Virus record (IMG/VR): IMGVR_UViG_3300032237_001348
Location: 1 to 39,311 of that record
Strand: one strand, 5' to 3'
DNA: 39,311 nucleotides
Source of the DNA: a virus
Lineage: Duplodnaviria; Caudoviricetes
Both the position numbers and the translations under genes were made by a program. Shown here in pieces: positions 2,920 through 32,622 of this stretch. Numbering within the stretch: the stretch's first letter is position 1; the number at the start of each line of letters is the position of its first letter. Below the pieces are notes generated by a model that saw only the letters and a program-made list of their open reading frames with translations, was not told where the DNA came from and did not search any database.

Positions 2920-3750
2920 TCAGCGACCTGTCGTATTAGGAGTGGCTAACTCAAGTACGGAACGAGTTAGTAAGTAATCTTTTTCTGTTATTTCTGCTAA
3001 ATCTTCTGGTATATAGTTTACCATAGGTTGGATGCCTCTCGCCATATAGGTAAAGGTTTGCTCAGTTATGAGATCGTCAACAGACATTGTAGAGCCTTCA
3101 TCCACGATAGTTATACCATATATCCTCATCTTAGAAAATGATCCCATCTCATTAGCAAATGAGATAGTGACGTCAAATGGTGGAAGCATGTCTGAAAGAG
3201 GAAACAAACCGGTCTTTAAATGTTCCTTAAATGTCTGAAGCTTATAAAAAGCATACTTATCAAACTGAGTGAAGATGAGGCTTCCAGCGATTGTTCTTGG
3301 CCCCTTCACGAATCCTCTTGGCCCAACTCTACCTAGGACCCTTACGGGTGAATTTTCCCTATGTATAGAATATGAGATAGTCTGAAGTTCACCAAGCTCT
3401 AATGGCTTATCTTGTCCAGGAATTATCATAGAGGCAACTATATCAACACCTGCGTAAGATGTATAAAGTCCAGTCGCGCCAAAGTCGCTTGAATAATTAA
3501 ATTTAGAATTTATATTCCTATTTATTGGAATAGCCCTAGACTGATCGAACTTTCCGTACTCATCAACTAAACCTTTATCAGTAGGATAAAAATATGATGG
3601 AAGATTAAGTTCATTTTCCCTATTGACTGGAAGTTCTTGTTCCGATGGTGGCTCATACCAGCTTGGGGCTGTGACAGGAGCAATACTCATAGCCTGTATA
3701 TCTTGCTCTTCTGTCGGATACCACCAATAAGGTTTTTGTTGATCAGGCAT
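2920..3750 (-). CDS. Tail tube-fold protein (minor tube / initiator paralogue)
   Basis: YAGVDIV...LQTISYSIHRENSPVRVLG...GPRTIAGSLIFTQFD...LPPFDVTISFANEMG...EQTFTYMARGI is clearly homologous to 3822-4496. Confidence 0.75.
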   Translation of the reverse strand: MPDQQKPYWWYPTEEQDIQAMSIAPVTAPSWYEPPSEQELPVNRENELNLPSYFYPTDKGLVDEYGKFDQSRAIPINRNINSKFNYSSDFGATGLYTSYAGVDIVASMIIPGQDKPLELGELQTISYSIHRENSPVRVLGRVGPRGFVKGPRTIAGSLIFTQFDKYAFYKLQTFKEHLKTGLFPLSDMLPPFDVTISFANEMGSFSKMRIYGITIVDEGSTMSVDDLITEQTFTYMARGIQPMVNYIPEDLAEITEKDYLLTRSVLELATPNTTGR

Positions 3751-3759
3751 GCGTTCTCC

Positions 3760-3795
3760 AAATAAAAAAGGGGCACTAAATATATAGTACCCCTT
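3760..3795 (-). terminator. Intrinsic terminator after the major tube gene
   Basis: Minus strand AAGGGGTACTA-TATATT-TAGTGCCCCTT followed by TTTTATTT: 11-bp stem with one G-U pair. Confidence 0.8.
3781..3790 (-). promoter_or_regulatory. Putative late promoter motif GTACTATATA, inside the terminator hairpin
   Basis: Matches the recurring TTACTA(T/A)AT motif; about 30 nt upstream of the start at 3750. Confidence 0.5.
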
Positions 3796-3821
3796 CTTAG
3801 AAAATCTAAACGTTAATATTA

Positions 3822-4496
3822 TTAAGGAACAATAATATTGGTATTGATAGTATCATCAACACCAGTGAAGTCAAGGACTCCATCACGGGGCTGACCAGAA
3901 GCATACATGGGGCCAACATCTCTAGCAACGTAGGTCATCGTCTCTTCGATTACGATATCATCCATAGAGGCACCAGAGCCTTCATTGAGAAGTTCTACGC
4001 CATAGATGCTGCGAACTGCAGCCTGGCCGTATTCGTTGGCGAATGTTATGGTAATATCAAATGGGGGAATCTGGTCGGCATAGTAGGGGAATGCTGAACG
4101 GATATCTCTCGTCTGATAATCGGGGGGAGTAATACCTCTGTGGGTTACGTTACCATTGGTGTCGAAACCTGGAAGAACGTTTGATGAACGAGTAAAGTAC
4201 TTCATAGAATCGTTATCGACGTTCTTTAATAGCAAGGCATAAAGTGATGGACGGTCGAAGGTTGTGAAGATCAGTGAACCAGCGATACCTCTTTTACCTC
4301 TTGAAAATGAACGAGGGTTTGGTGATCCCATTGTATAAATTGGCGCTTTTTCTCTTGTGACCGAGTATGTGATTCCGGATAAGGTACCAATTGGGACCGA
4401 ATCAAAACAGCATACGATGTCAGCACCGGAAAATGTTGTGTATGTATCGGTAAAGCGACCAATTTGATTGGTTGCACTACTTTGTGCTGCAGGCAT
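3822..4496 (-). CDS. Major tail tube protein
   Basis: Immediately downstream of the sheath and followed by a terminator. TFSGADIV...ITYSVTREKAPIYTMG...GKRGIAGSLIFTTFDR...IPPFDITITFANEYG. Confidence 0.8.
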   Translation of the reverse strand: MPAAQSSATNQIGRFTDTYTTFSGADIVCCFDSVPIGTLSGITYSVTREKAPIYTMGSPNPRSFSRGKRGIAGSLIFTTFDRPSLYALLLKNVDNDSMKYFTRSSNVLPGFDTNGNVTHRGITPPDYQTRDIRSAFPYYADQIPPFDITITFANEYGQAAVRSIYGVELLNEGSGASMDDIVIEETMTYVARDVGPMYASGQPRDGVLDFTGVDDTINTNIIVP

Positions 4497-4547
4497 ATTT
4501 ACCCCTTACCGCGATTCATTAAAATCGCATCTAAAGTTAAAGTTAAA

Positions 4548-5879
4548 TTATAGTTGTACAGATACTCTTACTTCGATGTTACGAAGTTCGAAAGCTGGCT
4601 GGAGAACAAGGTCAATAATAGCCTTGTTTTCTACACCAATGTATGTGATGTTGAAATCACTTGCAAGAAGTGCACCCATTTGCTGCATACCGCGAAGACC
4701 TGATGTGACAGAAGTTTCAAGAGCATTTCTGGTTGCGGTACTAGCTGCTTCGCCAATGAACTTCTGAGAAATCTGACGAATTAGTAGAACGGCATCGTAT
4801 ACGATACGCATAGTGGTAAGGCGACGGTAGTCGGATCCATCCTTAGCGAACGTTTGGGCATCAACCCAATTTGGAACCCTATTGAAGTTAAGGGCAACGG
4901 GGACGACACCCTTATCAACTAGACTGCTTTGGGTAGTCCTAGTTGGGTTATACCTTACTCGCTGAATATTGAATATGGTTTTTCCGGTTGGAGCTGACCA
5001 AGAATCAAGCTTAGTGATTGCACCGGCATATGATGCGGCACCGTTAGCAAAACCGAAATTAACAAACTCATTATAACGAAGTGGCTCTATTTCGCTAGCG
5101 ACAACCGATACGTAGTGGCCGATAAGATTGAGTGCATCACCAGTGTTTCGATTAACAAGGTTTGAAAGGCTAAGATGAGTAGCTACCTGAGCGGGAGTCA
5201 TACCCCCATCGGCAGTGGCAGCGCCAGTATAAGGCTTAACGCCCATAACGGCAAAGCAAGGATGAGAATCTTCTGTAATTCTCTTACACTGCGCAGCTAC
5301 CTTGTAAGCCCAGCTGTTAGCTGCGGTAGGCGAATTGTCTGCGTAGAAACCGAAATGGCCATCATCATCGCCAGGAGTAGCAGGAGACTGGAATTCGCTT
5401 GGACCAGAACCGCGACCCCAAGGGACAATAATATCTGCACGGGCGACCTCAGCAGCTGCAAATGCATCTGCAAAAAGGTTTGTGCCACCGGCAGCATTAT
5501 AGGTAGCGCTAGTAAGTGTACCTGTTGTATGGGCGTATACAGTATCGGAGGGTAGTGCGATGAGGGTTATAAACGAAGCGCCACCTCTTTGGGCTTCTAT
5601 GTAACCCCTATGTAGATCAGAACCAATACCAAAGTAGTTTATAACTTCTTGCTCATTGGTTGGGCTCACTGGATCAAGGTCAGGGACGAGTGAAGACAGA
5701 TTCACTGTAGCTGGATAATTGGGGTCATTGAATGCTGTGTAGCCAGTAGAAGGTGTAGCACCCTGAAGTGCCGACTTTCTGCGCCCAATGATGGCTACCC
5801 TAGGGCCGATTGGGACATCAGTTCTTGATATTCCGAGAAACTGATCTTTTATAACTAGATTAACGCCGGGGAGTGCCAC
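4548..5879 (-). CDS. Tail sheath protein (main)
   Basis: N-terminal LPGVNLVIKD. C-terminal sheath domain DYRRLTTMRIVYDAVLLIRQISQKFIGE...IIDLVLQPAFELRNIEVRVSV. GTG start with GGAGG RBS; precedes the tube gene. Confidence 0.88.
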   Translation of the reverse strand: MALPGVNLVIKDQFLGISRTDVPIGPRVAIIGRRKSALQGATPSTGYTAFNDPNYPATVNLSSLVPDLDPVSPTNEQEVINYFGIGSDLHRGYIEAQRGGASFITLIALPSDTVYAHTTGTLTSATYNAAGGTNLFADAFAAAEVARADIIVPWGRGSGPSEFQSPATPGDDDGHFGFYADNSPTAANSWAYKVAAQCKRITEDSHPCFAVMGVKPYTGAATADGGMTPAQVATHLSLSNLVNRNTGDALNLIGHYVSVVASEIEPLRYNEFVNFGFANGAASYAGAITKLDSWSAPTGKTIFNIQRVRYNPTRTTQSSLVDKGVVPVALNFNRVPNWVDAQTFAKDGSDYRRLTTMRIVYDAVLLIRQISQKFIGEAASTATRNALETSVTSGLRGMQQMGALLASDFNITYIGVENKAIIDLVLQPAFELRNIEVRVSVQL

Positions 5880-5985: not shown

Positions 5986-8091
5986 CTATCCGACACCAGA
6001 AAGAAGGGCTTGTCCAGAACTATTCGGATCCGTAAATAGCCAACCCGAATTGCCGCCACTATCAATAGACCGAGAACCAGCATACCAAATAGCATTATTA
6101 AATACGCCACCATATGCAGATGTGTCTGTAAGGTTTAAGTAGTTGGTACGTATAATTTTAAGATTAATCGAAGGTGGTACCTGTACTGAAGCGGGAGTAC
6201 CGGGCGAATCAGACTTAATGACAACTTTCTCATTTTCTGATCCACCAAGAAAAAATTGAGTACCAGTTAACACTACTGCATAGAACGTTGGTAAGGTTAC
6301 TGTAACCCCACCGGTAACAATAAATCCATCAACGCTAGATTGACTCAAGGAAGAAAAGTTCAAATTAAAAGAACTTTTGTATATAGTAATTAAACCAAAT
6401 GTTTCATTATACGATGAGATTGTTTTGTCGGCTGTATTATCTGTTATAACCAAATTTGGCATACCGGCTACCGCATTCACTGCATTAGTTTGCCATATCG
6501 TACCAGTTCCAGTTAATGTCACTTTATCGGGATAGGATTTAGGACTTGGAAACTGCAAAAACGCCCCTGAGGTAACAGCTATTGATTTCGCTTCAAAATC
6601 ATAGCCACTTGGGTAAAATGTTCCGGCTAGTATACTAAAAGTAACAGTACAAGTAAATGATGAACCCATTTGATAAGATCCAGTAGTATTAATATTTGGA
6701 AATGACTGAAAGCTAGTACCTGCTGTAGTTAATGTATAATTGCCCCTGCCGATAAAGTATAGATTATCCACAAGCCCGCCCTGATTTAGCGCTTTAGATG
6801 GAGATAATATAAGGTCACCGCAAAAATATTTATTTTGAAAATTAGCAGTAAAGTTTATTGTTGTTAAACTGCAGTTAGTCATATTTATAGAACCGAAACA
6901 TATTCCAAGTATACTTAAGGTACCAGTTCCAGAGTTTTCATTGTATATTGCAGTATCTTGGGGTAGTGGGGCCCTTTGTGTTCCGGCGGTTCCGCCAGAA
7001 GTACTTGCGTACTTGCTTGAATCATTAGAATTTCCTGTGCCACCAACATAATATGTGGTTACTGGTGTTGCCCCAGTTATATTTGTAGTACTAGATGGGA
7101 CTACCCCAAAACCAGAGTTTGACCAAGGAGATGATGCTCCTGCTGCGGTTATATCGGTAAAATCTACGAAACCATTCGTAACCATACTTGCGGCTGTTAT
7201 TGTTCTTTTAGTATTTATAACGGTTGACTGCATTAATATTCTATTTGCGGAACTATTTCCATTCATCGTTAAGGTACCTGTGACAGTTTGGTTAGCCGCC
7301 AATCTGTAAGAACCATAAGAATTATTCCCACCCGAAAATGTTAAATTGGCAAAAGTGTTAGTACCAGTTATTTGAACCATATTATTCGGACCTGTAAAAG
7401 TAACGTTATTATACGTTAAATTAGCTCCAGCGAAAATTATTTGACCTAAACTTGTTCCCGTTCCGATAATAGTTATTGATCCAGTATCTGGAGTAAATGT
7501 TAAGTTAGTTGTAGTCGTAGTCCAAACCGTAGTATTCAATCCAGTAATCGTGATTTGTGCTCCAGAAAAAATAATAGTTTTTGCAGTAGTTGTTGTGCCG
7601 GACCATATCCCTATGGAATGTGTTCTTCCATTCAAGTTTATAGTTCCGCTTTGGTGGTTCAATGTAGCAGCTGAGTTAACGGTTATGGCATCTGAGAAAA
7701 TATAACTTGATCCTGCACCAGCAAACGTAACATTTGAAAAAATTTTTCCTGCAGTAGTTATAGTTTGCTGAGTAGCCGATGTAGAAATGAATCTAACGGC
7801 TGAAGTGGTAGTACTTGCCCTAGTATATGTCATGCTTGAGGAAAATATTAATGCAAAGTTACTAGCATTTACAGTTGTAGTGCCAATGTTTAGGTTAAAA
7901 GCATTGTGCGTTAGGGTGCCGGTATACGTCGAGCAATCAAGCGACCGACAGTTAGCGGTTGCATTGATAGTTATACTTCCCGAGGTAGATGCAAGAATTA
8001 CATCATCTGCTGCAGTTGGGGCAACGCCGCCAACCCAAGTACTAGTAGCCGCCCAGTTTCCACCGCCGCTTGCAGCAGTTATAGTTGCCAT
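5986..8091 (-). CDS. Thr/Gly-rich beta-solenoid-type adhesin or fibre tip protein
   Basis: N-terminal GGGNWAATSTWVGGVAPTAADDV (G8-like or autotransporter-passenger-like opening), repeated internally as GGTGNSNDSSKY...APLPQDTA. Ends QALLSGVG. Confidence 0.55.
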   Translation of the reverse strand: MATITAASGGGNWAATSTWVGGVAPTAADDVILASTSGSITINATANCRSLDCSTYTGTLTHNAFNLNIGTTTVNASNFALIFSSSMTYTRASTTTSAVRFISTSATQQTITTAGKIFSNVTFAGAGSSYIFSDAITVNSAATLNHQSGTINLNGRTHSIGIWSGTTTTAKTIIFSGAQITITGLNTTVWTTTTTNLTFTPDTGSITIIGTGTSLGQIIFAGANLTYNNVTFTGPNNMVQITGTNTFANLTFSGGNNSYGSYRLAANQTVTGTLTMNGNSSANRILMQSTVINTKRTITAASMVTNGFVDFTDITAAGASSPWSNSGFGVVPSSTTNITGATPVTTYYVGGTGNSNDSSKYASTSGGTAGTQRAPLPQDTAIYNENSGTGTLSILGICFGSINMTNCSLTTINFTANFQNKYFCGDLILSPSKALNQGGLVDNLYFIGRGNYTLTTAGTSFQSFPNINTTGSYQMGSSFTCTVTFSILAGTFYPSGYDFEAKSIAVTSGAFLQFPSPKSYPDKVTLTGTGTIWQTNAVNAVAGMPNLVITDNTADKTISSYNETFGLITIYKSSFNLNFSSLSQSSVDGFIVTGGVTVTLPTFYAVVLTGTQFFLGGSENEKVVIKSDSPGTPASVQVPPSINLKIIRTNYLNLTDTSAYGGVFNNAIWYAGSRSIDSGGNSGWLFTDPNSSGQALLSGVG

Positions 8092-8901: not shown

Positions 8902-9115
8902 ATGATGCTCCAGTTGCTATTGTCAGAAATTAAATCTATTGACTCATTAGGCGCTAAAGATATAGTTGTTGTTCCATCAATTGTCTGCGCACTAGTTGAT
9001 TGGATAGTTATATTAGAAGTGTGTTTATTTTTTATGATATATTTACTTGTATTTGATATCGCCGTTGGTAGAGTGATTAAATGTTGCCCCGTTACTATGT
9101 AAACGTAATCCGTAT
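8830..9115 (-). repeat. Diverged repeat, copy 1: fibre C-terminal domain plus adaptor N-terminal peptide
   Basis: Matches 26310-26600. By eye 33/40 nt identical for 8841-8880 vs 26321-26360; protein TIDG...LISDNSNW followed by NPxGQxTMANSAPVV. Confidence 0.8.
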
Positions 9116-11630
9116 TACCAATTGATCCGAGTGTAATATCTCCCTTAGTAGTATTTACCACCCTTCCTTCAGTCTGAGGATTTAAAGGCAAAGAGTATAG
9201 GGCTTTACTTGTAGCAAAATTACCTATAGCTAGTTGTCCTTGAGCTACTGGATGAACGCCATCAGCGGACCAATAGTCAGGATCCCCCAAACCAACGCTT
9301 TGTCCAGCATCGTGAGAAGTTGCGCTAGATCCGTTATGTCCTCGCTTTACAGTTAGTACAGAGCCAGAGATGCTTCTTACTATCATCTTCTCGTAAACGC
9401 TAAGAATATTTCCAGCGCCTGCTCTAACCGTGATGACTGTACCTACAGTAATTGATGTACCCGGACTTGACGTTAGAGTCAATGTAGTCTGAGAACTTGT
9501 CATAGAAGATGCCAGTGTATTCACTGTTGTTGTTGATACCGCTATGGGACCTGTTAATTCTGCCCAATCCCATACTGCCGCGTTAAGATCATTAGCAGTG
9601 TTGTACATCTTGGCTAGAGTTAAATCCCATTGCTCTTTGGTGAGTGACCCTATGGGGTCTCTGTACGGCGGGATCATAAACACAAATGACGGTTGGCTCA
9701 ATCCACCGGCAGAATGACAGGCTTTGATCGTTGCTACCATAATCCGCATACGCGAATCTATCGTCAAATCTGCAACGCCTTGATCGTTTGTGCCAAGTGC
9801 GATAACGTACAGTGACGGTTTAACTAGTCCTTGTCGAACTGCACTCAACCAGCCTGTGTTAGCACTTGACATAGTCGGGGACGTGTAAGGTAACTGTACT
9901 TGGTAGCCAGATGTATGAGAGGCAACTGCTGTCCCGTTCTGTGCTCTCAGTACAGTTACAGTTGATCCGCTGATTCCCGTAACTGTCATCTGCTCATAAG
10001 TCAGATAGCCATAAGCAACGTCGTTTAGTACGAAAAGGGTAGAACCAACTGTAACACCAACGGAAGCCGCATCTGCTACTAGTGAAACTGAAGTCTGGTT
10101 CACGTTAGCCGTCAATGCAGCAGCAAGCGTTGTAATTTGATACTTCTCTGTGTTGTTCCAGTTGCTGTAAGTGGAACCAAAACGAGACGAGTTCCAAACT
10201 CTAACACCTTGCTCTTCTGTCCCGTCGTGTACCCATACGCCGTCAAATGTGGATGCGCCGTTGAAGGAGCCTGATGTGTCAGGGTTACCAGAGAGATTCA
10301 TAGTCAGTTGCTCTACGAGGAGCGTATACGTTCCACGAGAGGGAAACAGGATTTTCTCTACAGCAAGTTCCTGACCACCTGATGCTTGACAATAGGAAGT
10401 GCCACTGTTTCGGAACGTGAAAAATTGTGCTGTTGTTGCTGACACAGTAGCTTGAGAACTGTGTGACGCAGACACAGTACTATTGTAACCACGAGTTACA
10501 CCTAGACCGTAGTCAACGACTGAATCAACTAGCATCTGTTCGTTGTCAATCTGTATCACTGATCCAACCGTAATGCCTACTGTAGTAGCTAGATCAGCGA
10601 GTCCCAGAAACACGTCTCCTGGGGCTATCGTTGCCGAAAGCTTTGTCACCGGGAATACGACAGTTGCGTCTACACTATCTGTCACACTGAAGCGTATACC
10701 GCTTTGTGCAAATGCATTTACGTAGCGAAAAAAGATGTCTACGCTTGTGCCTGTGACCGTGGTTGACACTCTAGAACCACGCGGCATATCCATTGCTCGT
10801 AGACTGAAGCCTCTGGAAATCTTCTCTGTACCCAAAACACAGATACGAGAAACCCCAGCAGTCAATGCTGGAAGTAATGCATTGACTGTCACATAGCCGG
10901 ACGGAGCGTCGATGGAGACAATTGTGTACTGTGTTGCCGAGTTTGAGTCAATGATAAACTTGCCGCCAACAACTAGTTCTGTAGCTGACGTCACATACAA
11001 GTCCTGTCGACCAGAAATCTGGCTCGTTGCTACTGTTGTAGTCGTAGCGGGCGTAAATCGTGGAGTTGTGTACCAGACAGAAACACCATCACCCGTGCCT
11101 GCCGGTACCCAGTAGCCGTAACGACCATTAGTGTTAAACGATGAAGCTAACAGTCTCTGAAAAAGCTGAGGCCATGCTGTACCATTCGTCTGCGAGCCAA
11201 ACCAACCCTCACTTATGGAGTCACCAACTACTACAACATCGGTACTTTTGTTAAGGCTTCCTGAATCCAAACTATAACGAACTGAGTTTAAATTTCTATT
11301 CCAAGTTCTTAACGGTTCTAAGTTATTTCTCTCTATTTCAGATTCAATATATCCTGACTGAAAATCCAAAACTAGAGAACCATTACTACCTACGAGGCCC
11401 GATGAATATGATAGTGATATTTTTCCATTATCTAAGACAACCGGAGTTGCTGCCGTGATGATTGGGGATATACCCTGCGGACCTGTTGGACCTGTTGGGC
11501 CTTGTTGTCCCAAATATGATGTAGCTTTTGTTTTTTTTGTGACACCATTTTGAACAATTGGAATGTATTCATTTCCAGTTAAAGTATCTGCATCAGGGAG
11601 TTGTGAGATAGGTTTTTTATTCATTACCAC
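8898..11630 (-). CDS. Fibre/spike protein with SGNH (GDSL) esterase domain and inserted repeat domains
   Basis: VVGDSISEG, ALGTND and DGVHP catalytic blocks; short collagen stretch GQQGPTGPTGPQG; N-terminal KPISQLP...IPIVQNGVTKK fibre motif; C-terminal TIDG...DNSNW domain. Confidence 0.78.
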   Translation of the reverse strand: MVMNKKPISQLPDADTLTGNEYIPIVQNGVTKKTKATSYLGQQGPTGPTGPQGISPIITAATPVVLDNGKISLSYSSGLVGSNGSLVLDFQSGYIESEIERNNLEPLRTWNRNLNSVRYSLDSGSLNKSTDVVVVGDSISEGWFGSQTNGTAWPQLFQRLLASSFNTNGRYGYWVPAGTGDGVSVWYTTPRFTPATTTTVATSQISGRQDLYVTSATELVVGGKFIIDSNSATQYTIVSIDAPSGYVTVNALLPALTAGVSRICVLGTEKISRGFSLRAMDMPRGSRVSTTVTGTSVDIFFRYVNAFAQSGIRFSVTDSVDATVVFPVTKLSATIAPGDVFLGLADLATTVGITVGSVIQIDNEQMLVDSVVDYGLGVTRGYNSTVSASHSSQATVSATTAQFFTFRNSGTSYCQASGGQELAVEKILFPSRGTYTLLVEQLTMNLSGNPDTSGSFNGASTFDGVWVHDGTEEQGVRVWNSSRFGSTYSNWNNTEKYQITTLAAALTANVNQTSVSLVADAASVGVTVGSTLFVLNDVAYGYLTYEQMTVTGISGSTVTVLRAQNGTAVASHTSGYQVQLPYTSPTMSSANTGWLSAVRQGLVKPSLYVIALGTNDQGVADLTIDSRMRIMVATIKACHSAGGLSQPSFVFMIPPYRDPIGSLTKEQWDLTLAKMYNTANDLNAAVWDWAELTGPIAVSTTTVNTLASSMTSSQTTLTLTSSPGTSITVGTVITVRAGAGNILSVYEKMIVRSISGSVLTVKRGHNGSSATSHDAGQSVGLGDPDYWSADGVHPVAQGQLAIGNFATSKALYSLPLNPQTEGRVVNTTKGDITLGSIGNTDYVYIVTGQHLITLPTAISNTSKYIIKNKHTSNITIQSTSAQTIDGTTTISLAPNESIDLISDNSNWSII

Positions 11631-14602: not shown

Positions 14603-15951
14603 AATTGGATATCTAAGTTTGCTTGAATACTGCCAGTTCCATATACTGTTGTATCTATAGCGTCAAAGTCTCTAATTTTTCTAATAGGAATTGGATTTTC
14701 ATATTTAGATCCACGCACAACGCTCCTAAAACCACCTCTAGAAGTTGATGACAATAGCTCTGAGCGTAAAATAGAAGCAAGCTCACACCAAGATGTTGCA
14801 GTGCCGCGATTAAGAGTTCCGCTAGATTTGGGCTTATTGACCGTTAGGTCACCAAGGGTAAACGACATACTAAAGCCAGATCCAGTTGCATATATCTTTT
14901 CTAGTGAGCAGGATGTTGCAGCCTTTATATACTCCATTGCGACAAAAGGTATCTCTGTAACGTCTTCTTCTAATCCAAGAAGATTTTTTACCTCTAAAGA
15001 AAAATAGTGGATGTTTTCTGCTATCTCTACATTCCCGGCTTCTGTAAATATAGCTGATATTTCGTCTATATCTATATACATAGGATTCAAAACGCCGCAA
15101 TATAGCAGTTCTATATCGGATAGCATAGTGCATTGACTTGGTGTAGCTGCATTACTTAAGCCAACTAAAGATTTCGAAATAAGAATCCTATACTTATAAT
15201 TTTCTGCAAAGTAACTATAACTAGGTGTGTTGTATACTGAAGAAGTAGATGGAGTTGCTGCTAAAGGATAATGATCTATAGATGGTAAATCAACATTCAC
15301 CACAGAATGAGAGGAACCAAAAGAGATGCGCGCATCTACATCTACCCATCTTGTTGGAGCTTTTTTAATTTCTCTTTTTTGAACTTTTATATATGGAGAG
15401 GAAATGTAAGTGTTTGATACATTCATATTAAATGTTAATGAGATTCTTCCATTATTTTCATTCTCAAACAAATAATAAGAATTATCTTCGGGATACTGAG
15501 AGACTAAAGATAGAGCCGTTGAGCTAGATTGATTACCAACTGGGATATCAAATATATTGTCAGAAATTGCATAATCAACTATAACTGGTTCTGGAAATAC
15601 TAAATCACTTGTTTCGCTTGCTCCGGGGTCAATTACCTCAGTGGCGAAAGAAAAACCAGCATTTATGTATTCATTATCTAATACGTCAGTAAGGCCGGAA
15701 GTCGTAAAAGTGTAAGGTGAGTTAGATTGCAAAACGCCATCAGAGAAATACAAATACAGTATTCTAGAAATAGAATTATAATCTCTACCTAAACTTATAG
15801 TTTTAAAGGGATTAGAAATAGTAGATGGTGTGGCACTAGTTTTGTTTAAAAGAAAATTCCCGTTAACTATTGTCGAGACTTTCACTGTAACGCCAAATTT
15901 AATTTTTACGTAGATATCAGTAACAGTATACTCTTCAATTAAATCGGCCAC
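14599..15951 (-). CDS. Head-tail adaptor with N-terminal Ig-like domains
   Basis: First gene after the MCP. Two beta-rich N-terminal domains, then helical MYIDIDEI...YIKAATSCSL...SFTLGDLTV adaptor-like region. GTG start with GAGGAG. Confidence 0.6.
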   Translation of the reverse strand: MADLIEEYTVTDIYVKIKFGVTVKVSTIVNGNFLLNKTSATPSTISNPFKTISLGRDYNSISRILYLYFSDGVLQSNSPYTFTTSGLTDVLDNEYINAGFSFATEVIDPGASETSDLVFPEPVIVDYAISDNIFDIPVGNQSSSTALSLVSQYPEDNSYYLFENENNGRISLTFNMNVSNTYISSPYIKVQKREIKKAPTRWVDVDARISFGSSHSVVNVDLPSIDHYPLAATPSTSSVYNTPSYSYFAENYKYRILISKSLVGLSNAATPSQCTMLSDIELLYCGVLNPMYIDIDEISAIFTEAGNVEIAENIHYFSLEVKNLLGLEEDVTEIPFVAMEYIKAATSCSLEKIYATGSGFSMSFTLGDLTVNKPKSSGTLNRGTATSWCELASILRSELLSSTSRGGFRSVVRGSKYENPIPIRKIRDFDAIDTTVYGTGSIQANLDIQL

Positions 15952-16045: not shown

Positions 16046-17101
16046 TCAGGAAACAGTCTTTGTAAGCTCTACGTCGTAAGCCCTTGCTAGCCTGACATTC
16101 TTAGCGACGGTAATACCTTCGCCGTCACCCATCATAACGATGTCATAACGCTCTTTCATCTTAAGAGACTGAATGTCGCGTGCCGGATCATTCCAGCCAT
16201 CGGTTGTCATGTCATCCTTGACAAGAAGGACACCGATCTCATTGCGATCAATGAGGAAGACATCCGACTTGGCAGCGGTTGCGCCACTCTTAGCGGTAAA
16301 GTTTACGAAAGGCGACACAAGGACATTAAGGCCAAGTGGGGCAGTAGCGTTAGCTACCTGTTCCCTTGAGTTGGCTGGCATGCCCCATGCTGGCCATTCC
16401 TGGCCACCCATGCGGAATTCGTAGTTGCGGGCAAAAATGCTCCACATTAATGGATGAAGGATGAAATCAGTTGGTACGTGATTCTCAGCCATGAGTACAG
16501 CAGCCATTTCGATAACATCATCCCATGTAATCGTTTGATTCGCAGCACCAGTGGCGCCAAGACCAGTGGTATTGCCAATTACGTCAGGTGAATCATCATT
16601 ATCAAAAACTACTGTTGCAGCACCAGCAAATCTTGAAAGAGCAATCTGCTCCTTAAGACGAGCCATTGCACGACCAGCGGCACGAACGTGAAGACCAACA
16701 ATGTCCCAAAGGCTATCTGCGATAACTTCTTCGGTGAATGCAACCTTCACACCCTTTTTGCTGACCTTACCCTCGATTTGCTTTGCGAATGCAAGAGCTT
16801 GCTCTGGGTATTCCTGACCTTCGGGAATTTCATCGGCCTGAATTGCGTTAACTGCGGGGAACTCAAGTGAGCGACCCTTCCCAAGACGCACAACCGAAAG
16901 AAGTGGTGTAACCAGTAACTGTGGTTCTGCCGCTTCCTTTAGAGTGCGAGAAATAACTTTGGGGAAAAGGATAGGGGCATCGGGTGAAGCGAAAGCTTCC
17001 TTTACGGTAACTCTACGATCATCGTCGATGAAACCATCCTCAGTTAGTACAGATTCCCAGGCGTCATAATTCGCGAGGAGTTCTTCAATTGGTTTTGCCA
17101 T
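16046..17101 (-). CDS. Major capsid protein (HK97 fold)
   Basis: EIPEGQEYPE...KKGVKVAFTEEVIADSLWDIV...AGRAMARLKEQ...FILHPLMW...LKMKERYD. AGGAGG RBS; downstream hairpin; follows the protease and decoration genes. Confidence 0.92.
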   Translation of the reverse strand: MAKPIEELLANYDAWESVLTEDGFIDDDRRVTVKEAFASPDAPILFPKVISRTLKEAAEPQLLVTPLLSVVRLGKGRSLEFPAVNAIQADEIPEGQEYPEQALAFAKQIEGKVSKKGVKVAFTEEVIADSLWDIVGLHVRAAGRAMARLKEQIALSRFAGAATVVFDNDDSPDVIGNTTGLGATGAANQTITWDDVIEMAAVLMAENHVPTDFILHPLMWSIFARNYEFRMGGQEWPAWGMPANSREQVANATAPLGLNVLVSPFVNFTAKSGATAAKSDVFLIDRNEIGVLLVKDDMTTDGWNDPARDIQSLKMKERYDIVMMGDGEGITVAKNVRLARAYDVELTKTVS

Positions 17102-20554: not shown

Positions 20555-21337
20555 CTATATTAAACTATATGCTTGATGTTTTCTTGGGTCCCTATTGTTT
20601 AGGTAATTCTCCAACATCCACCTATGCATTATGTGGGTTACATACGTTCCGGAAGCACAATATAGATTTTTGTTGTGCAAATGACACTGGGTAGACCAAC
20701 CTAAGTCTTCCCCTTGTGCATGCCATTCATATTTAACGTTAGAATAAACATCTGGATTCATCATAACTGCGGCCATAATGATATCAGCCTTAAATGTCGA
20801 CCCAGAGCCTATTGGATAGGAGTCAAGTTGCCTTGCGGCCCTTCCTCCGGGGTGGTCAATCCATGTCATGACACTTGGAAAATCTATTCCATTTGGAAAC
20901 ATATAAGACAATGGAGATACTGCATCTACACCGTCTCTTTCCGATATATGGTATAGTTTTTCTAAAGTATGTGGATCTTCCATTATGAGATCAGAATCTA
21001 AAGAAAAATATTTGTCTGGCCTAATGCATGATGCCCGTTCAAGTAGGGAATTTCGTAATTCAACCATCTTAAAATATGCATCTTTTGTCCATGTCCTATG
21101 ATTTTCTTCATGGGTGCTATGATTTAAGTCTTCTCTAATAAATGCATCAAAATAGGCAACCTCTGGATGTCTACTTTGCCACTCCCATATTAAATCATGG
21201 GTTTCTTGATCATTTGGCCCAAGTTCAAAAAGGAATCCTATTTCACTTAAAGGGATCGATTGATTCTCTATAGATTTAAACCAATGTTCCAAAATCCAAG
21301 CGCGTTGGTAAACGGGACTACCAATTAGTATTTTCAT
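20555..21337 (-). CDS. GT-A fold (GT2-like) glycosyltransferase
   Basis: MKILIGSPVY first beta strand, LRNSLL, YFSLDSDL (DxD), QGEDLGW, terminal THIMH. ATG at 21337 preferred to the track start at 21406, which overlaps the upstream gene. Confidence 0.85.
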   Translation of the reverse strand: MKILIGSPVYQRAWILEHWFKSIENQSIPLSEIGFLFELGPNDQETHDLIWEWQSRHPEVAYFDAFIREDLNHSTHEENHRTWTKDAYFKMVELRNSLLERASCIRPDKYFSLDSDLIMEDPHTLEKLYHISERDGVDAVSPLSYMFPNGIDFPSVMTWIDHPGGRAARQLDSYPIGSGSTFKADIIMAAVMMNPDVYSNVKYEWHAQGEDLGWSTQCHLHNKNLYCASGTYVTHIMHRWMLENYLNNRDPRKHQAYSLI

Positions 21338-21353: not shown

Positions 21354-21620
21354 CTAAGAAGCGACTTCTTCAGTTTCCTTCTTAATAATTCGGGGCTTTT
21401 TAACATCTGCCTTAGGAAGTTCTTCTATTAGAGTTTGAGTTTTCTCATTTTCTGGTTCATTTAATTTATTCTCTAATTCAAATATGCGCTCTTCTAACCC
21501 TTCGATTATAGAAACCGAATATTCTAAAGCTAATCTAAATTGGCCATTCTTAACGGCATTTTTGAAACCTATCGACTTATCTTCCTTCAGCGTAAAACTT
21601 TGTGTTCTATTTTCCATCAA
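21354..21620 (-). CDS. Small coiled-coil hypothetical protein
   Basis: IIEGLEERIFELENKL heptads; AGGTGA RBS; between the portal and the glycosyltransferase. Confidence 0.6.
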   Translation of the reverse strand: MMENRTQSFTLKEDKSIGFKNAVKNGQFRLALEYSVSIIEGLEERIFELENKLNEPENEKTQTLIEELPKADVKKPRIIKKETEEVAS

Positions 21621-21651: not shown

Positions 21652-23181
21652 TTATTCCATTATACCATCTATAAGCTCTGCCATCTCTTTCACTAGCATA
21701 TCATCCAATGATCTTCTAATGTTCGGAGACGTTTTAGTACCATACTGATTTGTAGGCCTAATAATATTATCGGAACCTTTCCGATTATTCTTTGGTGCTT
21801 TAGAATTACCTGGTGTTGCACCTGTTGAATTTTCTGGATTTGCGTTGGGCGAGATAGACTCAATGTCCATCTCTGGCTTCATCCCTAGTTCTAGTCGGCC
21901 TTCTGGCACTGTTTGGATACCTGCAAGAACCTTTTGTATAACGTATGCACCTTTTTTGACTTCGGTATCGGAATCTATTTCATTAAACTTAAAATAACAT
22001 CTATCCGATATCCCATTAAGTTCCGGATTATTGTAAGGGTCGAATCCACCTTCAAGCAAAAGTTCGTTAAATATGAATAGCCTCATTGAGTCTTCAAACT
22101 TGCGCTGATACTCCTTAATTTTATCGTAAAGGGCAATATCTAATCTGTCCGTCATAGCCTGAGAGGCATTTGATGTCATACCAAGATGATGAGGATAAAC
22201 GCCGAGGCCTATAGCAACCCTTTCTTTAAAATGGTCTAAATATTTAGAAGCATCTAAAGCGTTGCCGCTTGCACCAAGAACTTCTACATCATGCCTATTA
22301 GACATAACTAAAGCGCCTTCAGATCTTAATCCTTCGACTTCGTTTGCTGCTTTATCTAGTTCTTCATCTGTAGCGGGCTGCTCATCTGTCCCTACCTTGA
22401 ACTTATAAAGCGGGAATAATTCACGATGTACAAGATTTTGTATATCTTCTTCTATTTGACGTAATGCGATGATATCATCCATAGCCGAAGCTATGAACGG
22501 CGTGCCAAAGATTCTTCCAGGCTTCCTATCAGTCGCAATGTGTATTACGTCATCGGCCTTCCAACGTGGAGACATATCGGTAGAGCCTAATCCTGTCATA
22601 TCTGTTCTTTGCCTATACCAGAGAACTTTATTATTCTTATTCCTTAATATCTCTACTCTTTCAGTAGGGATAAGATAATAACCTATAATTGGTTTTTTAT
22701 TTTCTGGGGGGAAAAGCATGCCTGGAAAATATTCCTGAAGATCACCACGTGATTTCACTATAAAAACATTTCCAAATCTTACAAGCTGATCTGAAACTTC
22801 GCTAAGAAAATCATTCCAAGATTTTTTCATAGCTACTTCCATAAAATCTATACGCTGAAGTAAATAACCTCTAGCTTCTGAATTTTCGGAAACTATATTC
22901 CATCCTTCTTTCCAAAAAAGCTCACGGTATTTACTTATCGCCTGTCTAGCATATGAATCTGTATCTATAGCCTGTATAATCCTATCAAAATCAAATGGGG
23001 GAAGCTCAAATGTATCCCCCGTATATGATCTTGTTGAGAAATTTTGAAAACCTAAAGCTAAAGCCGCAACGCGAAAAGCCCTAGCTAAACCTTTTTGGTC
23101 ATCCTGAGGTAGGATAACTGCTTGTTTTTTAGGGGTTTTACTAGGTGCATTTTGAAATGGTAAAAAATCATTTAAGCGCAT
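21652..23181 (-). CDS. Portal protein
   Basis: 509 aa. DQLVRFGNVFIVK, DDVIHI, IFGTPFI, YLDHFKERVAIGLGVYPHHLG, TVPEGRLELGMKP are portal-type motifs; upstream of the protease. Confidence 0.88.
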   Translation of the reverse strand: MRLNDFLPFQNAPSKTPKKQAVILPQDDQKGLARAFRVAALALGFQNFSTRSYTGDTFELPPFDFDRIIQAIDTDSYARQAISKYRELFWKEGWNIVSENSEARGYLLQRIDFMEVAMKKSWNDFLSEVSDQLVRFGNVFIVKSRGDLQEYFPGMLFPPENKKPIIGYYLIPTERVEILRNKNNKVLWYRQRTDMTGLGSTDMSPRWKADDVIHIATDRKPGRIFGTPFIASAMDDIIALRQIEEDIQNLVHRELFPLYKFKVGTDEQPATDEELDKAANEVEGLRSEGALVMSNRHDVEVLGASGNALDASKYLDHFKERVAIGLGVYPHHLGMTSNASQAMTDRLDIALYDKIKEYQRKFEDSMRLFIFNELLLEGGFDPYNNPELNGISDRCYFKFNEIDSDTEVKKGAYVIQKVLAGIQTVPEGRLELGMKPEMDIESISPNANPENSTGATPGNSKAPKNNRKGSDNIIRPTNQYGTKTSPNIRRSLDDMLVKEMAELIDGIME

Positions 23182-26600: not shown

Positions 26601-29380
26601 GCCGCACTAGCTGCTGTTGTATTAGTGGATACAGTAAATATAGATCTTGATCTACCTTTATCCCCATTCCTAACGAACATTAGATAAAATATAAGTCCAT
26701 CTGTTTGTACGCTCCCTGTTATTGGCGTAACTGGTATCTTATAATAACCAGAAGCTGCAATAACGGATCCATTAACAGCAAATATATTTTGATGGCCTTC
26801 TATACTTGTAAAATAAAGATATCCTTTTACAGAGGATGTAGAATCATCAAATGTATCATACCAACTAGTCCTAGAACCAGCAGCGTCATTGTTGTCTATA
26901 TATATATAAGTTACAGCACTAAAGGGATCGTTATTATACCTAAAAAATCCTACCCCAGGATCGCCGTCAATGGTACTTGTGCTAAATGTATACCTTGGTG
27001 AATTTGCTACAGCCTTACCATTTTCCCAAACTGACGTTGAACTATCCCACCTCAAAACATCACCATTAGTTATGCTAGTTATGGTTACATCTGATAAATC
27101 ATCTAGCGCAACTGTTCCCATAGCGGTTGAATGGTCTAGCGCATCATGCCTGGCGGTATTTAAATATTGCGTGTGGTCATCATCGGCTAGGCCGGTTAGA
27201 GATCCATGATCCGATACTGGGGTTGACGTCACCCCACCTGCATTAGATATAGCTTGACGTAAATCGAGTACAGCAGTAAATCGTGCCTTAGGAGTATTTG
27301 AATAGGTTGTTGAAGTTTGATATATGACCTTATAAAGAAGCCTAAACTCAAAAACGGGGAATCCAGTTAAGTCTACGTTAGACCAGTCTTCGATTTCTGC
27401 ATCACCTTGGTTGGCATATTCGCTTTGTCCTAAAATAGCTAAAATTGGATATGTTAGATTATTAGTTGCGACAATCCAAGATATTCCAAACTTTCCATTT
27501 TGGGATATATCTGGAGTTGACCAAGTGCCCGCAGTATTTAAGTTGTACTGAACCCTACTAGTCCCCTGCTTGAGGGGATAAGTAGTTGGATTATCCCGCT
27601 TCCAAACAGTACCAGACCTATAAAAAATAGGTATTAAAGCAGGCCCTTGTATATCTTGCTGCCAAGTATTAGCCGTAGGGGTATTTGAGTGAACTACATC
27701 AACTTGTAAATCTTCATCAAAAAATGTACCATCTGCTATATCAAGCTGTGCATGTGTATTACTTGACCCATTTCCAGATATAGTATAATTACCAGCTCCA
27801 AAACCATTAGCTATAGCTGCGCCACGAGTCCTGTGCAGGTATTCATGTGTGGCCCAATCAAGCGTAACGCCGTGCCTCTCATCCGCAAAGAAGTATGCTT
27901 TACTATCAGTTGCATTCCAGTATATATAAGCGGTTGGGGTTTGGCTATCCCATTCAAAATAAGTAGTTTGATAGATAAGGTTTCCAGATGCATCATAACA
28001 AATATAATACAGACCAGAAGTATTTGGTATAGTAACTGTCTCTGCTGCCGACTTTTCGTATCTAGTTCCCTGACACCATACGTAATGGGATCCAGATACT
28101 GGTGAAATAGAAAATTTTCTAGCGTTAGCGCCAGTTTCAGTAAATGATATGGTGCTTTGCGTTTTATCTTCGTGACCTATCGGCTCTTTAGTTGCGGAGA
28201 TAACACTATCTATTTTTGGTGGCAAATTGATCCAAGCACCGTCCGCAAGATGTGTCAATACATCGCCATCCGCCAAGGCGCCAGCTGGCGCAATCCCAAT
28301 ATAGACATCGTCAAGCCCATCTAATGTAGTTGCCCCACCGCCACCAATCCCCGCTGGTAGCATCCAGTCTGGCTGAAAAAAGGAAACAATTTCAGACCAT
28401 TCTGATCTTTGATCATACACATCCACTACCCTATAGCAAAAGTAAAAATTACCATAATCATATAAACTTTGGGTTAGTGATGTCTTAACTATAACTTTTG
28501 TTCCAACATTATTTATATCTGGATTTGCCTCTGTTGTTGGCGTAGCTGCAGTATTTGTGGTTGCCGTTCTTGCTATAGTCTTAGATAGGTCTGGAGTTAC
28601 GATTAGTCTACGGGAAGAATATATACCCGTCCCATCCTGTAAGGCATCTATGAAAGACCAACTAACCTGAGGAACTTCTGTTGCAAAACAAAGTATTTCA
28701 AATTCCTTAAAATCTAAAGCATTCGTTGATGGATCAGGCATTTGAAGATAATTTGCCATCTTAAGTATAAATTCATTACCTATTTTTATTGCGCCAGTTG
28801 AATCTGTATAACTAGATGTTGTGACGTTTGGGTAACCTATAGGTGGCTTAACTGGTGGATTATTTTCAAAATCTAATTGTAGATAACTAGATTTATTTCC
28901 TGATATATTTACCGTGCGGACAGCGACACTTACCTTCGGCTGCGTAATCCCGCCAAATGCTGCTTTATTCTCTGCTAATGTGAAGACGTATGAAGTGTCC
29001 TGAGTAATCTTGGTGACCGATATACCTTCTGCCGTGAACATCACCTCGTAATGGGAAAAATCAGTCATTGGACTACCATCGTCGTTGGTAGTAGAAGCTG
29101 TCCATTCTACTGTTAAGTCGCTAGTTTCAAATCGTCCAGTTAAGTTAGTGAAATTAGCTGGTCTACTAGGTTTATTTATTGATGGAGGAGTTATAAACTC
29201 TACAGCATCTGACCATTCTGAATAAACATTAAAATTATTATATGATCTAACCCTAGCTAAATACCTAGTATTAGGAAGTAGATTCTGGATAGTTCGCTGA
29301 ATAGGATAGACTTCTCCAGTAGATGGAGTTGCACTTTCTTCAGGATAATCTGAAAGGTTAATGTAATCATTATTATTCAT
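26381..29380 (-). CDS. Long fibre protein with N-terminal FN3 domains
   Basis: NLLPNTRYLARVRSYN...SEWS (FN3), LDGLDDV/LDDLSDV..GDVL.W fibre repeats, HGSLTGLADDDHTQY, C-terminal TIDG...DNSNW domain. Confidence 0.75.
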   Translation of the reverse strand: MNNNDYINLSDYPEESATPSTGEVYPIQRTIQNLLPNTRYLARVRSYNNFNVYSEWSDAVEFITPPSINKPSRPANFTNLTGRFETSDLTVEWTASTTNDDGSPMTDFSHYEVMFTAEGISVTKITQDTSYVFTLAENKAAFGGITQPKVSVAVRTVNISGNKSSYLQLDFENNPPVKPPIGYPNVTTSSYTDSTGAIKIGNEFILKMANYLQMPDPSTNALDFKEFEILCFATEVPQVSWSFIDALQDGTGIYSSRRLIVTPDLSKTIARTATTNTAATPTTEANPDINNVGTKVIVKTSLTQSLYDYGNFYFCYRVVDVYDQRSEWSEIVSFFQPDWMLPAGIGGGGATTLDGLDDVYIGIAPAGALADGDVLTHLADGAWINLPPKIDSVISATKEPIGHEDKTQSTISFTETGANARKFSISPVSGSHYVWCQGTRYEKSAAETVTIPNTSGLYYICYDASGNLIYQTTYFEWDSQTPTAYIYWNATDSKAYFFADERHGVTLDWATHEYLHRTRGAAIANGFGAGNYTISGNGSSNTHAQLDIADGTFFDEDLQVDVVHSNTPTANTWQQDIQGPALIPIFYRSGTVWKRDNPTTYPLKQGTSRVQYNLNTAGTWSTPDISQNGKFGISWIVATNNLTYPILAILGQSEYANQGDAEIEDWSNVDLTGFPVFEFRLLYKVIYQTSTTYSNTPKARFTAVLDLRQAISNAGGVTSTPVSDHGSLTGLADDDHTQYLNTARHDALDHSTAMGTVALDDLSDVTITSITNGDVLRWDSSTSVWENGKAVANSPRYTFSTSTIDGDPGVGFFRYNNDPFSAVTYIYIDNNDAAGSRTSWYDTFDDSTSSVKGYLYFTSIEGHQNIFAVNGSVIAASGYYKIPVTPITGSVQTDGLIFYLMFVRNGDKGRSRSIFTVSTNTTAASAADTDYVYIVGGAYTITMPTAVANTNRYSIKNAHSASITVNTTSSQTIDGSSSIGIAAEDSVDLISDNSNWRIL

Positions 29381-30607: not shown

Positions 30608-31068
30608 TAAACTATATAGATCTTAATACTATTCTCTGGAACCACTAATGAATCCCCGGTATTCAATATGTATGCTGTTACAGGTGTTGCATCCGTATTA
30701 ATTATGGCATCAGAAAAAAGAAGATCCCCAGAATATTTATCTGTCCATATTCCGATATGGGAGATCTCAGATGCTGGTAGCCTTGGAAAAAAGATGCTAG
30801 CGTTATTAGAAATATATGTATTATATACTAACTCACCATTAGTTGGGGTAGCCGAAGGAAGTTCCGTTATTGGTGGGTCAAAGGAAATAGGTTGACGTTC
30901 GTACGCCCCACCCTCAAGTTCTCCTGCGCTACTTTCTACGTCAGATGGAGAAGATCTATGTAAAGCAATGTATAACGTAGATGGTCTTGCCTGGGCTGTA
31001 TATTCTGAATCTCCACGAAAAAAATGATTAGCTACTGCTTTTGCATACGTATTAGATAAACCACTCAT
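30607..31068 (-). CDS. Small tail/fibre-base structural protein
   Basis: LSNTY...TLYIALH..SP...ELEGGAYERQPISF...SN...IFFP...ISHIGIW...GDLLF, a widespread phage structural family. Confidence 0.65.
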   Translation of the reverse strand: MSGLSNTYAKAVANHFFRGDSEYTAQARPSTLYIALHRSSPSDVESSAGELEGGAYERQPISFDPPITELPSATPTNGELVYNTYISNNASIFFPRLPASEISHIGIWTDKYSGDLLFSDAIINTDATPVTAYILNTGDSLVVPENSIKIYIV

Positions 31069-31103
31069 TATTAAAACCTATCTTCACACAAAACGAATAT
31101 AAA

Positions 31104-31113
31104 CATATAGTAA
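31104..31113 (-). promoter_or_regulatory. Putative late promoter motif TTACTATATG
   Basis: Intergenic, about 36 nt upstream of the ATG at 31068. Confidence 0.5.
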
Positions 31114-32622
31114 CTAGTAAACGGGCGTAGCACTATCGCGTTGGACTATCTGTATCTCATACATCTGGTTTTGGTCTTTACTCTCCCAAAATAAATTTGC
31201 GCCCAAAAATGTAGTACTACCAAAAGTGCCGCCATCTTCAAACTGATTTAGCACTCTGAGATTTAACGGTTTTTCAATATGCTCATCTATATCTACTGTG
31301 TTAGATATAAGACTACCATCCACAATAGAGCTACCACTTATTTTTTGGGACCCATCTTTACCCGAGTGGGCATGGTGAGACAAATCTACTCCGTCAATTT
31401 TGATACCATCATCAAATAATATATTTCCAGTTACGGTATCACCAGCCTTTAGTAAGTACTGGGGATGGGCATCAAAAGCATCTCTGCCTACAAGGGTACC
31501 GTGGGTTGATGCAAACTCATCAAATTGACCAGTACCGGAAAGTGCTTCTGCAAGGGCTTTATCTGTAATTACATCTGGTTGCCCATTGACGAATGGGCTA
31601 TAGGTTACATTTGATTTCGACGAAAGGTGCTTAATGACTCCCTTAAGGCTCTCTCTTCGGCCTATGGTTTCTTCTATTTTATTCATCTTTACTGAGAATA
31701 TTTGATTTCTCTCTAGTAAATCAGTAAGTCCAGCTTGAGTGTTGATTCGTAAAGATTCTACAGCTTTCTTTATTTCGGTACCTAGAACTGTATTATCATT
31801 AGACTTTAGCTCAAGGTCCTTACCCACATTCACCCTAAATTTAATAGATGGCCCAAGAAATTTATTATAGAATAAATCAGATGATGTTGAAAAATGTTTT
31901 TCAAAACTAGAAAGATCTCTATCTAACTCTAAATTAACTGCATTTACTTTGGCCTTGAAAAGAGCTTGGTATTTTCCTGCGTCTTGCCCCTGGATAGCAG
32001 CCATTTCGGATTCTGGAATTTGGGATGTATTTTCCTTGTCTCTCTCCGAGAAGTAAGACCATAAGCGCCCCGAATGGACGAGCGCTGATGTCGCCCAGTC
32101 TTGTAGGAGTTCTTGTACTCTTTCCACGGCTGCATCATTTACATTACCAACATGAGCATTTAAGAATCCTTTAATGTTTGTTGCCTCTGTATTGAGGACA
32201 TTAGCCACCTTGCGTACGTCCAGTGAACCTGTTCCCTTTTCACTTCTTATGTTATTCAGATATTGGTCGCGAATATACTTAGAGGCCCTATCTAGCCTGC
32301 CATCTAATGCCTGATATTGCTTATATGTTACGTAATCTTTTACCTCAGGAATAGATTCTGGCCAAATTGTTTTTTGGGCTTCCATTAATTTATCTGTTTC
32401 AATTTTCAGATTGAAATTTCCTAGATCCTCATCAGCTGATAATATTAGTAATTCTGTTTGCTTAATTATCTCGTTTAATTGGCGATCTAATGCACTTCTA
32501 CTATAAGCTGACCCATCGAATGTTGGTATGTCGATGTTGGATTTAGGGTTGTTAGAACCTTTTTGCGCTTTGTAGTCTTTGTCTGGACCAGAAAAATCTA
32601 AGTCCTTGTAATCATTACTCAT
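31114..32622 (-). CDS. Helical virion protein with fibre-type C-terminus (paralogue of 32634-34241)
   Basis: DLDFSGPDKDYK...FYNKFLGPS...HPQYLLKAGDTVTGNI...HAHSGKDGSQKISGS...KPLNLRV. Confidence 0.6.
   Translation of the reverse strand: MSNDYKDLDFSGPDKDYKAQKGSNNPKSNIDIPTFDGSAYSRSALDRQLNEIIKQTELLILSADEDLGNFNLKIETDKLMEAQKTIWPESIPEVKDYVTYKQYQALDGRLDRASKYIRDQYLNNIRSEKGTGSLDVRKVANVLNTEATNIKGFLNAHVGNVNDAAVERVQELLQDWATSALVHSGRLWSYFSERDKENTSQIPESEMAAIQGQDAGKYQALFKAKVNAVNLELDRDLSSFEKHFSTSSDLFYNKFLGPSIKFRVNVGKDLELKSNDNTVLGTEIKKAVESLRINTQAGLTDLLERNQIFSVKMNKIEETIGRRESLKGVIKHLSSKSNVTYSPFVNGQPDVITDKALAEALSGTGQFDEFASTHGTLVGRDAFDAHPQYLLKAGDTVTGNILFDDGIKIDGVDLSHHAHSGKDGSQKISGSSIVDGSLISNTVDIDEHIEKPLNLRVLNQFEDGGTFGSTTFLGANLFWESKDQNQMYEIQIVQRDSATPVY

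Follow-up and report, generated by a model that had tools for sequence, protein, structure and literature searches.

The locus considered here raises the question of why one short word, the tripeptide Ala-Thr-Pro (ATP), recurs in so many outer proteins of a phage particle, and of what could be reading it. The stretch of DNA analysed, hereafter the window, comprises the 39,311 nucleotides of the IMG/VR record IMGVR_UViG_3300032237_001348, a 39.3-kb piece of a phage structural module in which every gene lies on the minus strand. It encodes a candidate initiating glycosyltransferase (GT) of 260 residues (20555..21337, minus strand), and the initial annotation had proposed that this enzyme reads a virion-wide tag of the form [S/A/G]-A-T-P-[S/T/V/G/N]. 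Based on the window and on its relatives, we consider it probable that the virion surface undergoes sequon-directed O-glycosylation, in which GT 20555-21337 would read A-T-P and transfer the first sugar to the Thr; the word is likely to be a sugar-attachment signal because its excess follows one GT gene across three phage lineages.

A six-frame scan finds 17 ATP tripeptides, every one of them in the coding frame of the minus strand and exactly at the position first given for it (each being the low end of the nine bases); they fall in 11 of the 35 proteins and not in 12 structural proteins as had been stated, the original list itself naming 11. For the gene set used in the window statistics (35 open reading frames, ORFs; 12,797 residues), the per-protein composition predicts 3.6 copies (Poisson P 2.7e-7) and the frequencies of the dipeptides AT and TP predict 6.6; among the 8000 tripeptides ATP takes the first rank. 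None of 5000 within-protein shuffles reached 17 copies, so that the enrichment over shuffled proteins foreseen by the initial annotation is borne out, and the same result in 2000 block shuffles at each block size (10, 20 and 40 residues) rejects local composition as its cause. The other five orders of the same three residues occur 3-8 times each, and the words STP, TTP, GTP and ASP stay at chance level there, with 4, 2, 5 and 1 copies vs 3.5-4.3 expected. The 17 copies are written with 13 different codon triplets and the two non-coding minus-strand frames hold none, which rejects a DNA-level motif and agrees with the earlier remark that the codons vary too much for a DNA repeat. It is also the case, as first described, that S, A or G precedes 14 of the 17 copies and that the window terminase, protease/scaffold, GT, major capsid protein (MCP) and major tube have none. 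The ATP excess is genuine and belongs to the proteins; chance should account for some 3-4 of the 17 sites. The second most enriched tripeptide of the window is Ser-Ala-Thr (27 vs 8.6, five of them in SATP); as a second motif it was discarded, with only about 1.5-fold enrichment in the related genomes G001 and G002.

The window MCP shows 38-44% identity to its counterparts in Bacillus phage 0305phi8-36, KLEB27-3 and Moorella phage MTATph1; the window also has the gene order of 0305phi8-36 and its relatives and, judged from sequence, falls in a clade of 0305phi8-36-like phages of ~190-230 kb. Close relatives abound (509 matching stretches in IMG/VR, on contigs of up to about 190 kb, the best 80 of the 509 being kept for analysis), and no cultured clade member was found by an MCP search or by tblastn of the GT against 50,697 phage records. 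An actinobacterial host is proposed because a close relative, G001 (MCP 92% identical to that of the window), carries WhiB, which by its presence points to such a host; G001 also encodes four GT2-type genes and one nucleoside triphosphate (NTP) transferase.

In this clade the GT gene stands between portal and protease in all 46 loci that were found by their MCP, and in none of 56 distant loci. Three of the distant loci (L125, L127 and L128) hold 7 ATP against 1.0-1.7 expected, at the decoration, neck and sheath positions, and a later search of whole records found a GT homolog (E 1.4e-37) in G006, the genome of L127, which had been noticed for its ATP excess before the homolog was sought. No GT homolog is present in any of the 17 remaining distant records, of which 12 have a completeness of 90% or more, nor in any of the three whole records of the cultured relatives 0305phi8-36, KLEB27-3 and MTATph1. 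In an MCP tree of 45 rows G006 lies inside the GT-less lineages, and the GT label needs two changes. The observed/expected ratio of ATP in the structural module is 2.9-6.5 in six GT-bearing genomes (window included) and 0.5-2.4 in ten GT-less ones, the motif thus being rarer where the GT is missing; in the sister loci L306, L307/L310, L308 and L309, whose head modules lack the GT, there are 2 ATP vs 3.8 expected, in fragments. Among the 85 families that occur in three or more of four clade genomes, only the GT is found in G006 and at the same time missing from four complete, motif-poor genomes, a result with which BLAST agrees; these four negative genomes were chosen among the GT-less ones, and the real test is the uniqueness of the GT's profile.

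The G006 GT stands last in a sugar and polyol-phosphate operon (L264:14545-19514 and L265:162-1600, about 114.5-121.6 kb) that also encodes a UDP-GlcNAc 2-epimerase, two glycerophosphotransferase-like proteins, a cytidylyltransferase of the IspD type, a short-chain dehydrogenase and two additional GTs (a DxD-type GT and a GT8 are among its genes), and that by its predicted gene content resembles teichoic-acid synthesis. Two GT2 families occur in all four clade genomes and are missing from G006; no second GT family is common to the clade and G006.

A search by the GT alone returned 20 loci, nine of which were new and were analysed: one clade member (L389), two PhiF1-like loci, a weak homolog (L392) and five loci with a different capsid family (L382 and L385-L388). 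The last five form a third lineage, where the GT comes after the tube-position gene and the head-to-tube modules hold 18 ATP vs 1.5 expected, while GT-less controls of the same capsid family (PMBT24, Kirov and MT835481) hold 1 vs 1.1. Its tube-position proteins are among the carriers (the alignment leaves out the decoration row of MT835481 and the tube row of L382), and in G049 ATP again ranks first of 8000 tripeptides, the GT being the only clade family that matches the contig. The co-occurrence of motif and GT family anticipated by the initial annotation is therefore found in three phage lineages.

What kind of enzyme this gene encodes is less direct to establish, since the GT label rests on homologs and motifs: the window protein has no Pfam or PHROG match of its own, and a single-sequence search of the PDB returned none. 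Among at least 120 homologs listed, most carry PF13704 and some PF03452 (Anp1). Anp1 matches appear in 10 of 28 homologs (best E 1.6e-6) and not in the window GT; among those seen, only the G006 homolog passes the PF03452 cut-off (64.7 vs 28.8 bits), and a scan of 16 incomplete records gave no match, which their incompleteness makes uninformative. A DxD motif (D114, D116), an xED motif (G209-E210-D211) and H235 are unchanged in all 28 homologs, and DxD, xED and the C-terminal His are likewise invariant across the clade, G006 and PhiF1; the available text of PMC7185993 gives these as the GT-A active-site set, and here xED and the His were assigned by position in the sequence and not by structural overlay. 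The AlphaFold2 (AF2) model is a confident alpha/beta structure (mean pLDDT 95.4), the GT profile matches the N-terminal part of human COLGALT1 (E 1.4e-8, positions 5-142) and, weakly, LH3 and R699, and the ESM Atlas places the protein among mostly viral clusters named GT25 N-terminal / Anp1. The model, the COLGALT1 match and the Atlas neighbours agree on what is probably a GT-A fold, as assigned from profiles, and the nearest solved relatives are parts of protein-modifying enzymes.

The matched region of COLGALT1 is, however, its N-terminal GT1 domain, which the available text of PMC12003778 describes as donor-binding and non-catalytic. It could thus be that a GT-fold protein reads the word without initiating, either as a non-catalytic, structural binder or as an extender of a sugar placed by another enzyme, and this would explain the co-occurrence equally well. 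Enzymes of the Anp1 family in yeast, too, extend glycans and do not attach them to protein. We still find this explanation unlikely, since a mere binder does not agree with an xED base and a C-terminal His kept invariant together with DxD from the clade to G006 and PhiF1, and since, with no second GT family in common, a separate initiator would have to differ in each lineage.

Within the virion proteins, the best-conserved site is GATPN (17589..17597), which lies in a loop of the decoration protein (17127-17876) that is a variable insertion: ATP is present in 100 of 102 clade homologs, both exceptions being short edge pieces, and 31 of 32 dereplicated sequences retain all three residues, with flank conservation of 0-0.4 except for the Gly at -1. 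This site is absent in all 17 aligned distant homologs, the nearest of which (P0241, 63% identical, a protein that could not be placed on any contig) misses the loop, and the GT-bearing L200 has lost the loop yet has two ATP elsewhere in the same protein. The earlier expectation that motifs would lie in insertions relative to GT-less homologues therefore holds for the decoration site, whose loop is lacking or replaced in distant homologs. On structure models, the mapping covered the three sites of the neck/adaptor-like protein (14599-15951), and all three lie in coil in its AF2 model.

Across the clade, ATP is carried by 83 of 96 homologs of the adaptor-like protein and 12 of 12 of the first sheath, and by 0 of 84 of the GT, 0 of 82 of the portal and 1 of 32 of the terminase. 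The claim that the MCP lacks the word stands for the window and fails for the clade, where 28 of 104 relatives carry it; the polymorphic site (MCP residues 274-276, 16274..16282) reads ATA in the window and STP, GTP, ATP or ATA in relatives. Some homologous sites have STP or GTP in place of ATP, and some window sites (portal, C-terminus of the 502-aa protein) are not common to relatives. Turnover is clearest in a baseplate-like protein encoded outside the window, which has 17, 17, 13 and 8 ATP in four clade genomes at 27-37% mutual identity; these 55 copies occupy 32 aligned positions, 18 of them private to one genome, while 13 homologs from GT-less genomes hold 2 copies vs 1.7 expected. Such a number of private and shifting positions means that sites are gained and lost, and this gain and loss points to a reader of the word. 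In a basal clade member, one protein (L187:2162-3127) has five ATP copies at five-residue spacing, a tandem expansion.

The flanks of 208 non-redundant sites in relatives show S, A or G at -1 in 93 (45% vs 26% background) and S, T, V, G or N at +1 in 130 (63% vs 41%), the preference being driven by S and G at -1, S and N at +1, D, E or N at -2 and Y or S at +2. Of the five-residue tag originally put forward, the core A-T-P is thus retained; the full form is too strict, its flanks being mere preferences.

Three further explanations have to be weighed. ATP could be a docking peptide for a decoration or fibre protein, its link to the GT being coincidental: the motif does sit at the termini and in the loops of outer proteins, small fibre-like genes are numerous in the window, and 31 clade-only families offer possible binders. 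It is nonetheless a long shot, as the GT alone is common to the clade and G006 and absent from the motif-poor genomes, as no other clade family matches G049, and as a word of three residues, in tandem copies in L187 and at 17 scattered sites in one protein, suits an enzyme better. Modification of the Thr by a host enzyme (a Ser/Thr kinase or a cytoplasmic glycosyltransferase) has some precedent in the host-dependent modification of a mycobacteriophage tail protein reported in the available text of PMC13445384, and the WhiB gene of G001 hints at an actinobacterial host; we give it only a slender chance, given that the motif tracks a phage gene across three lineages with probably different hosts and is missing from the GT-less relatives of those lineages. 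That ATP is just a favourable turn or linker word of Thr-rich beta proteins, inherited or due to chance, is largely refuted and hardly credible, for although every structural module has a mild excess of TP (1.1-1.6) and ATP is conserved in the decoration protein of the GT-less PMBT24 and in many terminases, block shuffles never give 17 copies, STP, TTP, GTP and ASP stay at chance in the window, and GT-less homologs of the same proteins lack the word.

Several observations, besides the match to a non-catalytic COLGALT1 domain, weigh against a Thr-glycosylating GT that reads A-T-P. The head module of Methanobacterium virus PhiF1 includes a homolog (L380:14903-15610, ORF15; 37% identical to the G006 GT, hidden Markov model E 1e-23), yet the ATP count of this virus is 4 vs 2.7; only TP is mildly raised (71 vs 48), and GT-less modules already reach TP ratios of 1.1-1.3. 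The idea that the tag is read by GT 20555-21337 is accordingly backed by the enrichment and by the co-occurrence in three lineages, and has PhiF1 against it, a virus with the homolog and not the excess. The weak homolog locus L392 has 2 ATP vs 1.1, and over whole genomes the ratios nearly touch (2.3-4.2 for GT-bearing, 1.4-2.05 for GT-less genomes). G006 is looser in its usage (TTP 26 vs 7.4, ATP 21 vs 6.6), and 14 of its [AST]TP sites lie within one repetitive Pro/Thr-rich protein. The third-lineage decoration ATP is homologous to a site in the GT-less PMBT24 (15 copies are counted without it), and the whole-genome excess in this lineage is modest (10 vs 3.8 in G050, 7 vs 3.6 in G047). Thirty-one other families are clade-only, and no clade member lacking the GT was found among the 46 loci; with no loss of the GT seen in the clade, GT and word therefore count there as one event. 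Finally, the contrast between structural and non-structural genes drawn in the initial annotation does not generalize: the word is avoided in the non-virion genes of G001 and G002 (together 4 vs 10.2) and not in those of G025 (12 vs 6.6), and general avoidance was dropped as a candidate feature. PhiF1 is a cultured archaeal virus, and hence a ready system for finding what this GT family modifies.

Weighing these points, we retain the glycosylation of ATP threonines by the phage GT as the probable explanation. The GT would act in the infected cytoplasm, where its targets would be accessible loops and termini in the proteins of the decoration, neck, sheath, fibres and baseplate. Its acceptor would be the Thr hydroxyl, in keeping with the lack of enrichment of Ala-Ser-Pro and with the replacement of Ala by Ser, Gly or Thr. 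Other, lineage-specific phage GTs may then extend the glycan, and the resulting coat may serve as a shield, make the particle more stable or modulate its adhesion. On a broader and less secure view, which we hold to be slightly better than an even bet, a mobile Anp1/COLGALT-like initiating GT family was taken up separately by at least three tailed-phage lineages, whose virions each time evolved the same Ala-Thr-Pro sequon on outer loops, a portable O-glycosylation code that in G006 may carry a teichoic-acid-like polyol-phosphate glycan. The structural regions of G001 and G002 have long collagen-like Gly-Pro-Thr / Gly-Ala-Thr repeats, which top their tripeptide ranks and are possible further acceptors for phage GTs.

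The remaining window sites (all on the minus strand) are distributed over the head, neck, tail and fibre genes. In the neck/adaptor-like protein (sites counted with the 290-305-aa paralogues of its family set aside), SATPS at residue 40 (15826..15834) reads ATP in 44 of 56 relatives and STP in another 5; 43 of 54 relatives have an ATP no further than 10 columns from AATPS at residue 232 (15250..15258; pLDDT of the block 66); and AATPS at residue 269 (15139..15147) is reached by 10 relatives, with STP in 3 and ATP in 1. The tail sheath (4548-5879) has PATPG (5373..5381), kept in 5 of 6 dereplicated relatives, and, in an N-terminal insertion, GATPS (5751..5759), also found in G001 at residue 41. 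A tube paralogue (2920-3750) carries LATPN (2938..2946) five residues from its C-terminus, a site seen in 0 of 3 clade homologs. GATPG (21811..21819) in the C-terminal tail of the portal is private to this phage (0 of 82 relatives), and SATPVY-stop (31123..31131), the C-terminus of the 502-aa protein (31114-32622), is found in 0 of 19 relatives.

Among the fibre-like and other tail genes, GATPV (7063..7071) lies in a 701-aa Thr-rich fibre-like protein without family match (5986-8091), and a 189-aa protein (8332-8901) holds both AATPG (8719-8727) and SATPS (8779-8787) where 0.12 are expected. In the 910-aa SGNH/fibre protein (8898-11630), which has GDSL and tail-fibre matches, AATPV (11442..11450) comes after a short collagen-like run. 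The 999-aa fibre (26381-29380) carries AATPT (28538..28546) and, near its N-terminus, SATPS (29324..29332), and 40 homologs of its family together hold 48 ATP where 7.5 are expected. The 153-aa Gp80-family fibre protein (30607-31068; PF23140 above cut-off) has DATPV (30682-30690) and SATPT (30844-30852), and its G001 homolog one ATP. Just upstream of the GT stands a clade-conserved 88-aa gene (21354..21620, minus strand) with an NGQxRLAL helix and an acidic/Lys-rich tail, found between portal and GT across the clade (62 distinct homologs); it has no convincing family match and was not detected among the families common to the clade and G006.

Other features of the window and of its relatives were recorded along the way. 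The window terminase large subunit (34241-37036, minus strand, 931 aa) contains an intein with a LAGLIDADG domain, and several relatives have shorter, intein-free versions. The protease/scaffold (17903-20500, minus strand) is 865 aa long, compared with about 450-690 in most clade relatives, and has inserted domains (phrog_2859, phrog_19463 and a Hva1_TUDOR-like one). After the terminase come two similar, adjoining genes of ~500 aa without family match (31114-32622 and 32634-34241, minus strand), of which most clade relatives seen have one copy only. In G001, at about 121-125 kb (L090:7077-11279), ThiF-family and JAB-like genes lie near each other, a predicted arrangement that suggests a ubiquitin-like conjugation module. 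No Rfam match was found in the window.

If the preferred explanation is true, an abundant clade of large aquatic phages and two more lineages coat many of their outer proteins by a rule that can be read in the sequence, their glycosylation sites become predictable from genomes, and the initiating enzyme is named; a small cytoplasmic enzyme and a three-residue tag would also be available for site-directed protein O-glycosylation. It can be put to the test without phage culture, with one 260-aa enzyme and one 249-aa target. In the literature searched (with supplements and most subscription papers outside its scope) we found no phage Ala-Thr-Pro sequon, and the window GT had no tblastn match among the 50,697 phage records at E 1e-5, a threshold that leaves room for remote homology and a collection in which the presence of Che8 is unconfirmed; the G006 homolog matches only PhiF1 in it.

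With regard to known systems, the window resembles 0305phi8-36, KLEB27-3 and MTATph1 in its two sheath genes, its tube paralogues and its decoration gene before the MCP, and differs from them in that they have no GT homolog and an ATP count close to background over the regions read (1 vs 2.1, 4 vs 2.0 and 8 vs 4.1). The GT is akin to COLGALT1/GLT25D1 GT1 and to Anp1 (PF03452) through its profile match, the Anp1 matches of its homologs and its Atlas clusters; unlike COLGALT1, in which GT1 is non-catalytic and the enzyme modifies hydroxylysine (available text of PMC12003778), it is a stand-alone viral protein of 260 aa with xED and the C-terminal His. A third comparison is offered by mycobacteriophages, for which Freeman and colleagues reportedly described virion glycosylation in 2023 (Che8, Corndog and Myrna). 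In the available text of PMC12363180, PMC13445384 and PMC12582341, phage GTs are described in a few of these phages, with an O-linked sugar proposed on virion proteins, capsid and tail tube as the targets, and no sequon named. The window shares with that system a phage-encoded GT gene (20555-21337), a proposed O-linked sugar on virion proteins and a probably actinobacterial host. It appears to depart from it in its targets, the window MCP and major tube lacking the word that decoration, neck, sheath, fibre and baseplate proteins carry, although 28 of the 104 clade MCPs and the tube-position proteins of the third lineage do have it. Thus, while we do not file it as a member (no enzyme match, other main targets and no sequon in the accessible parts of those papers), the system would work like the virion glycosylation of mycobacteriophages.

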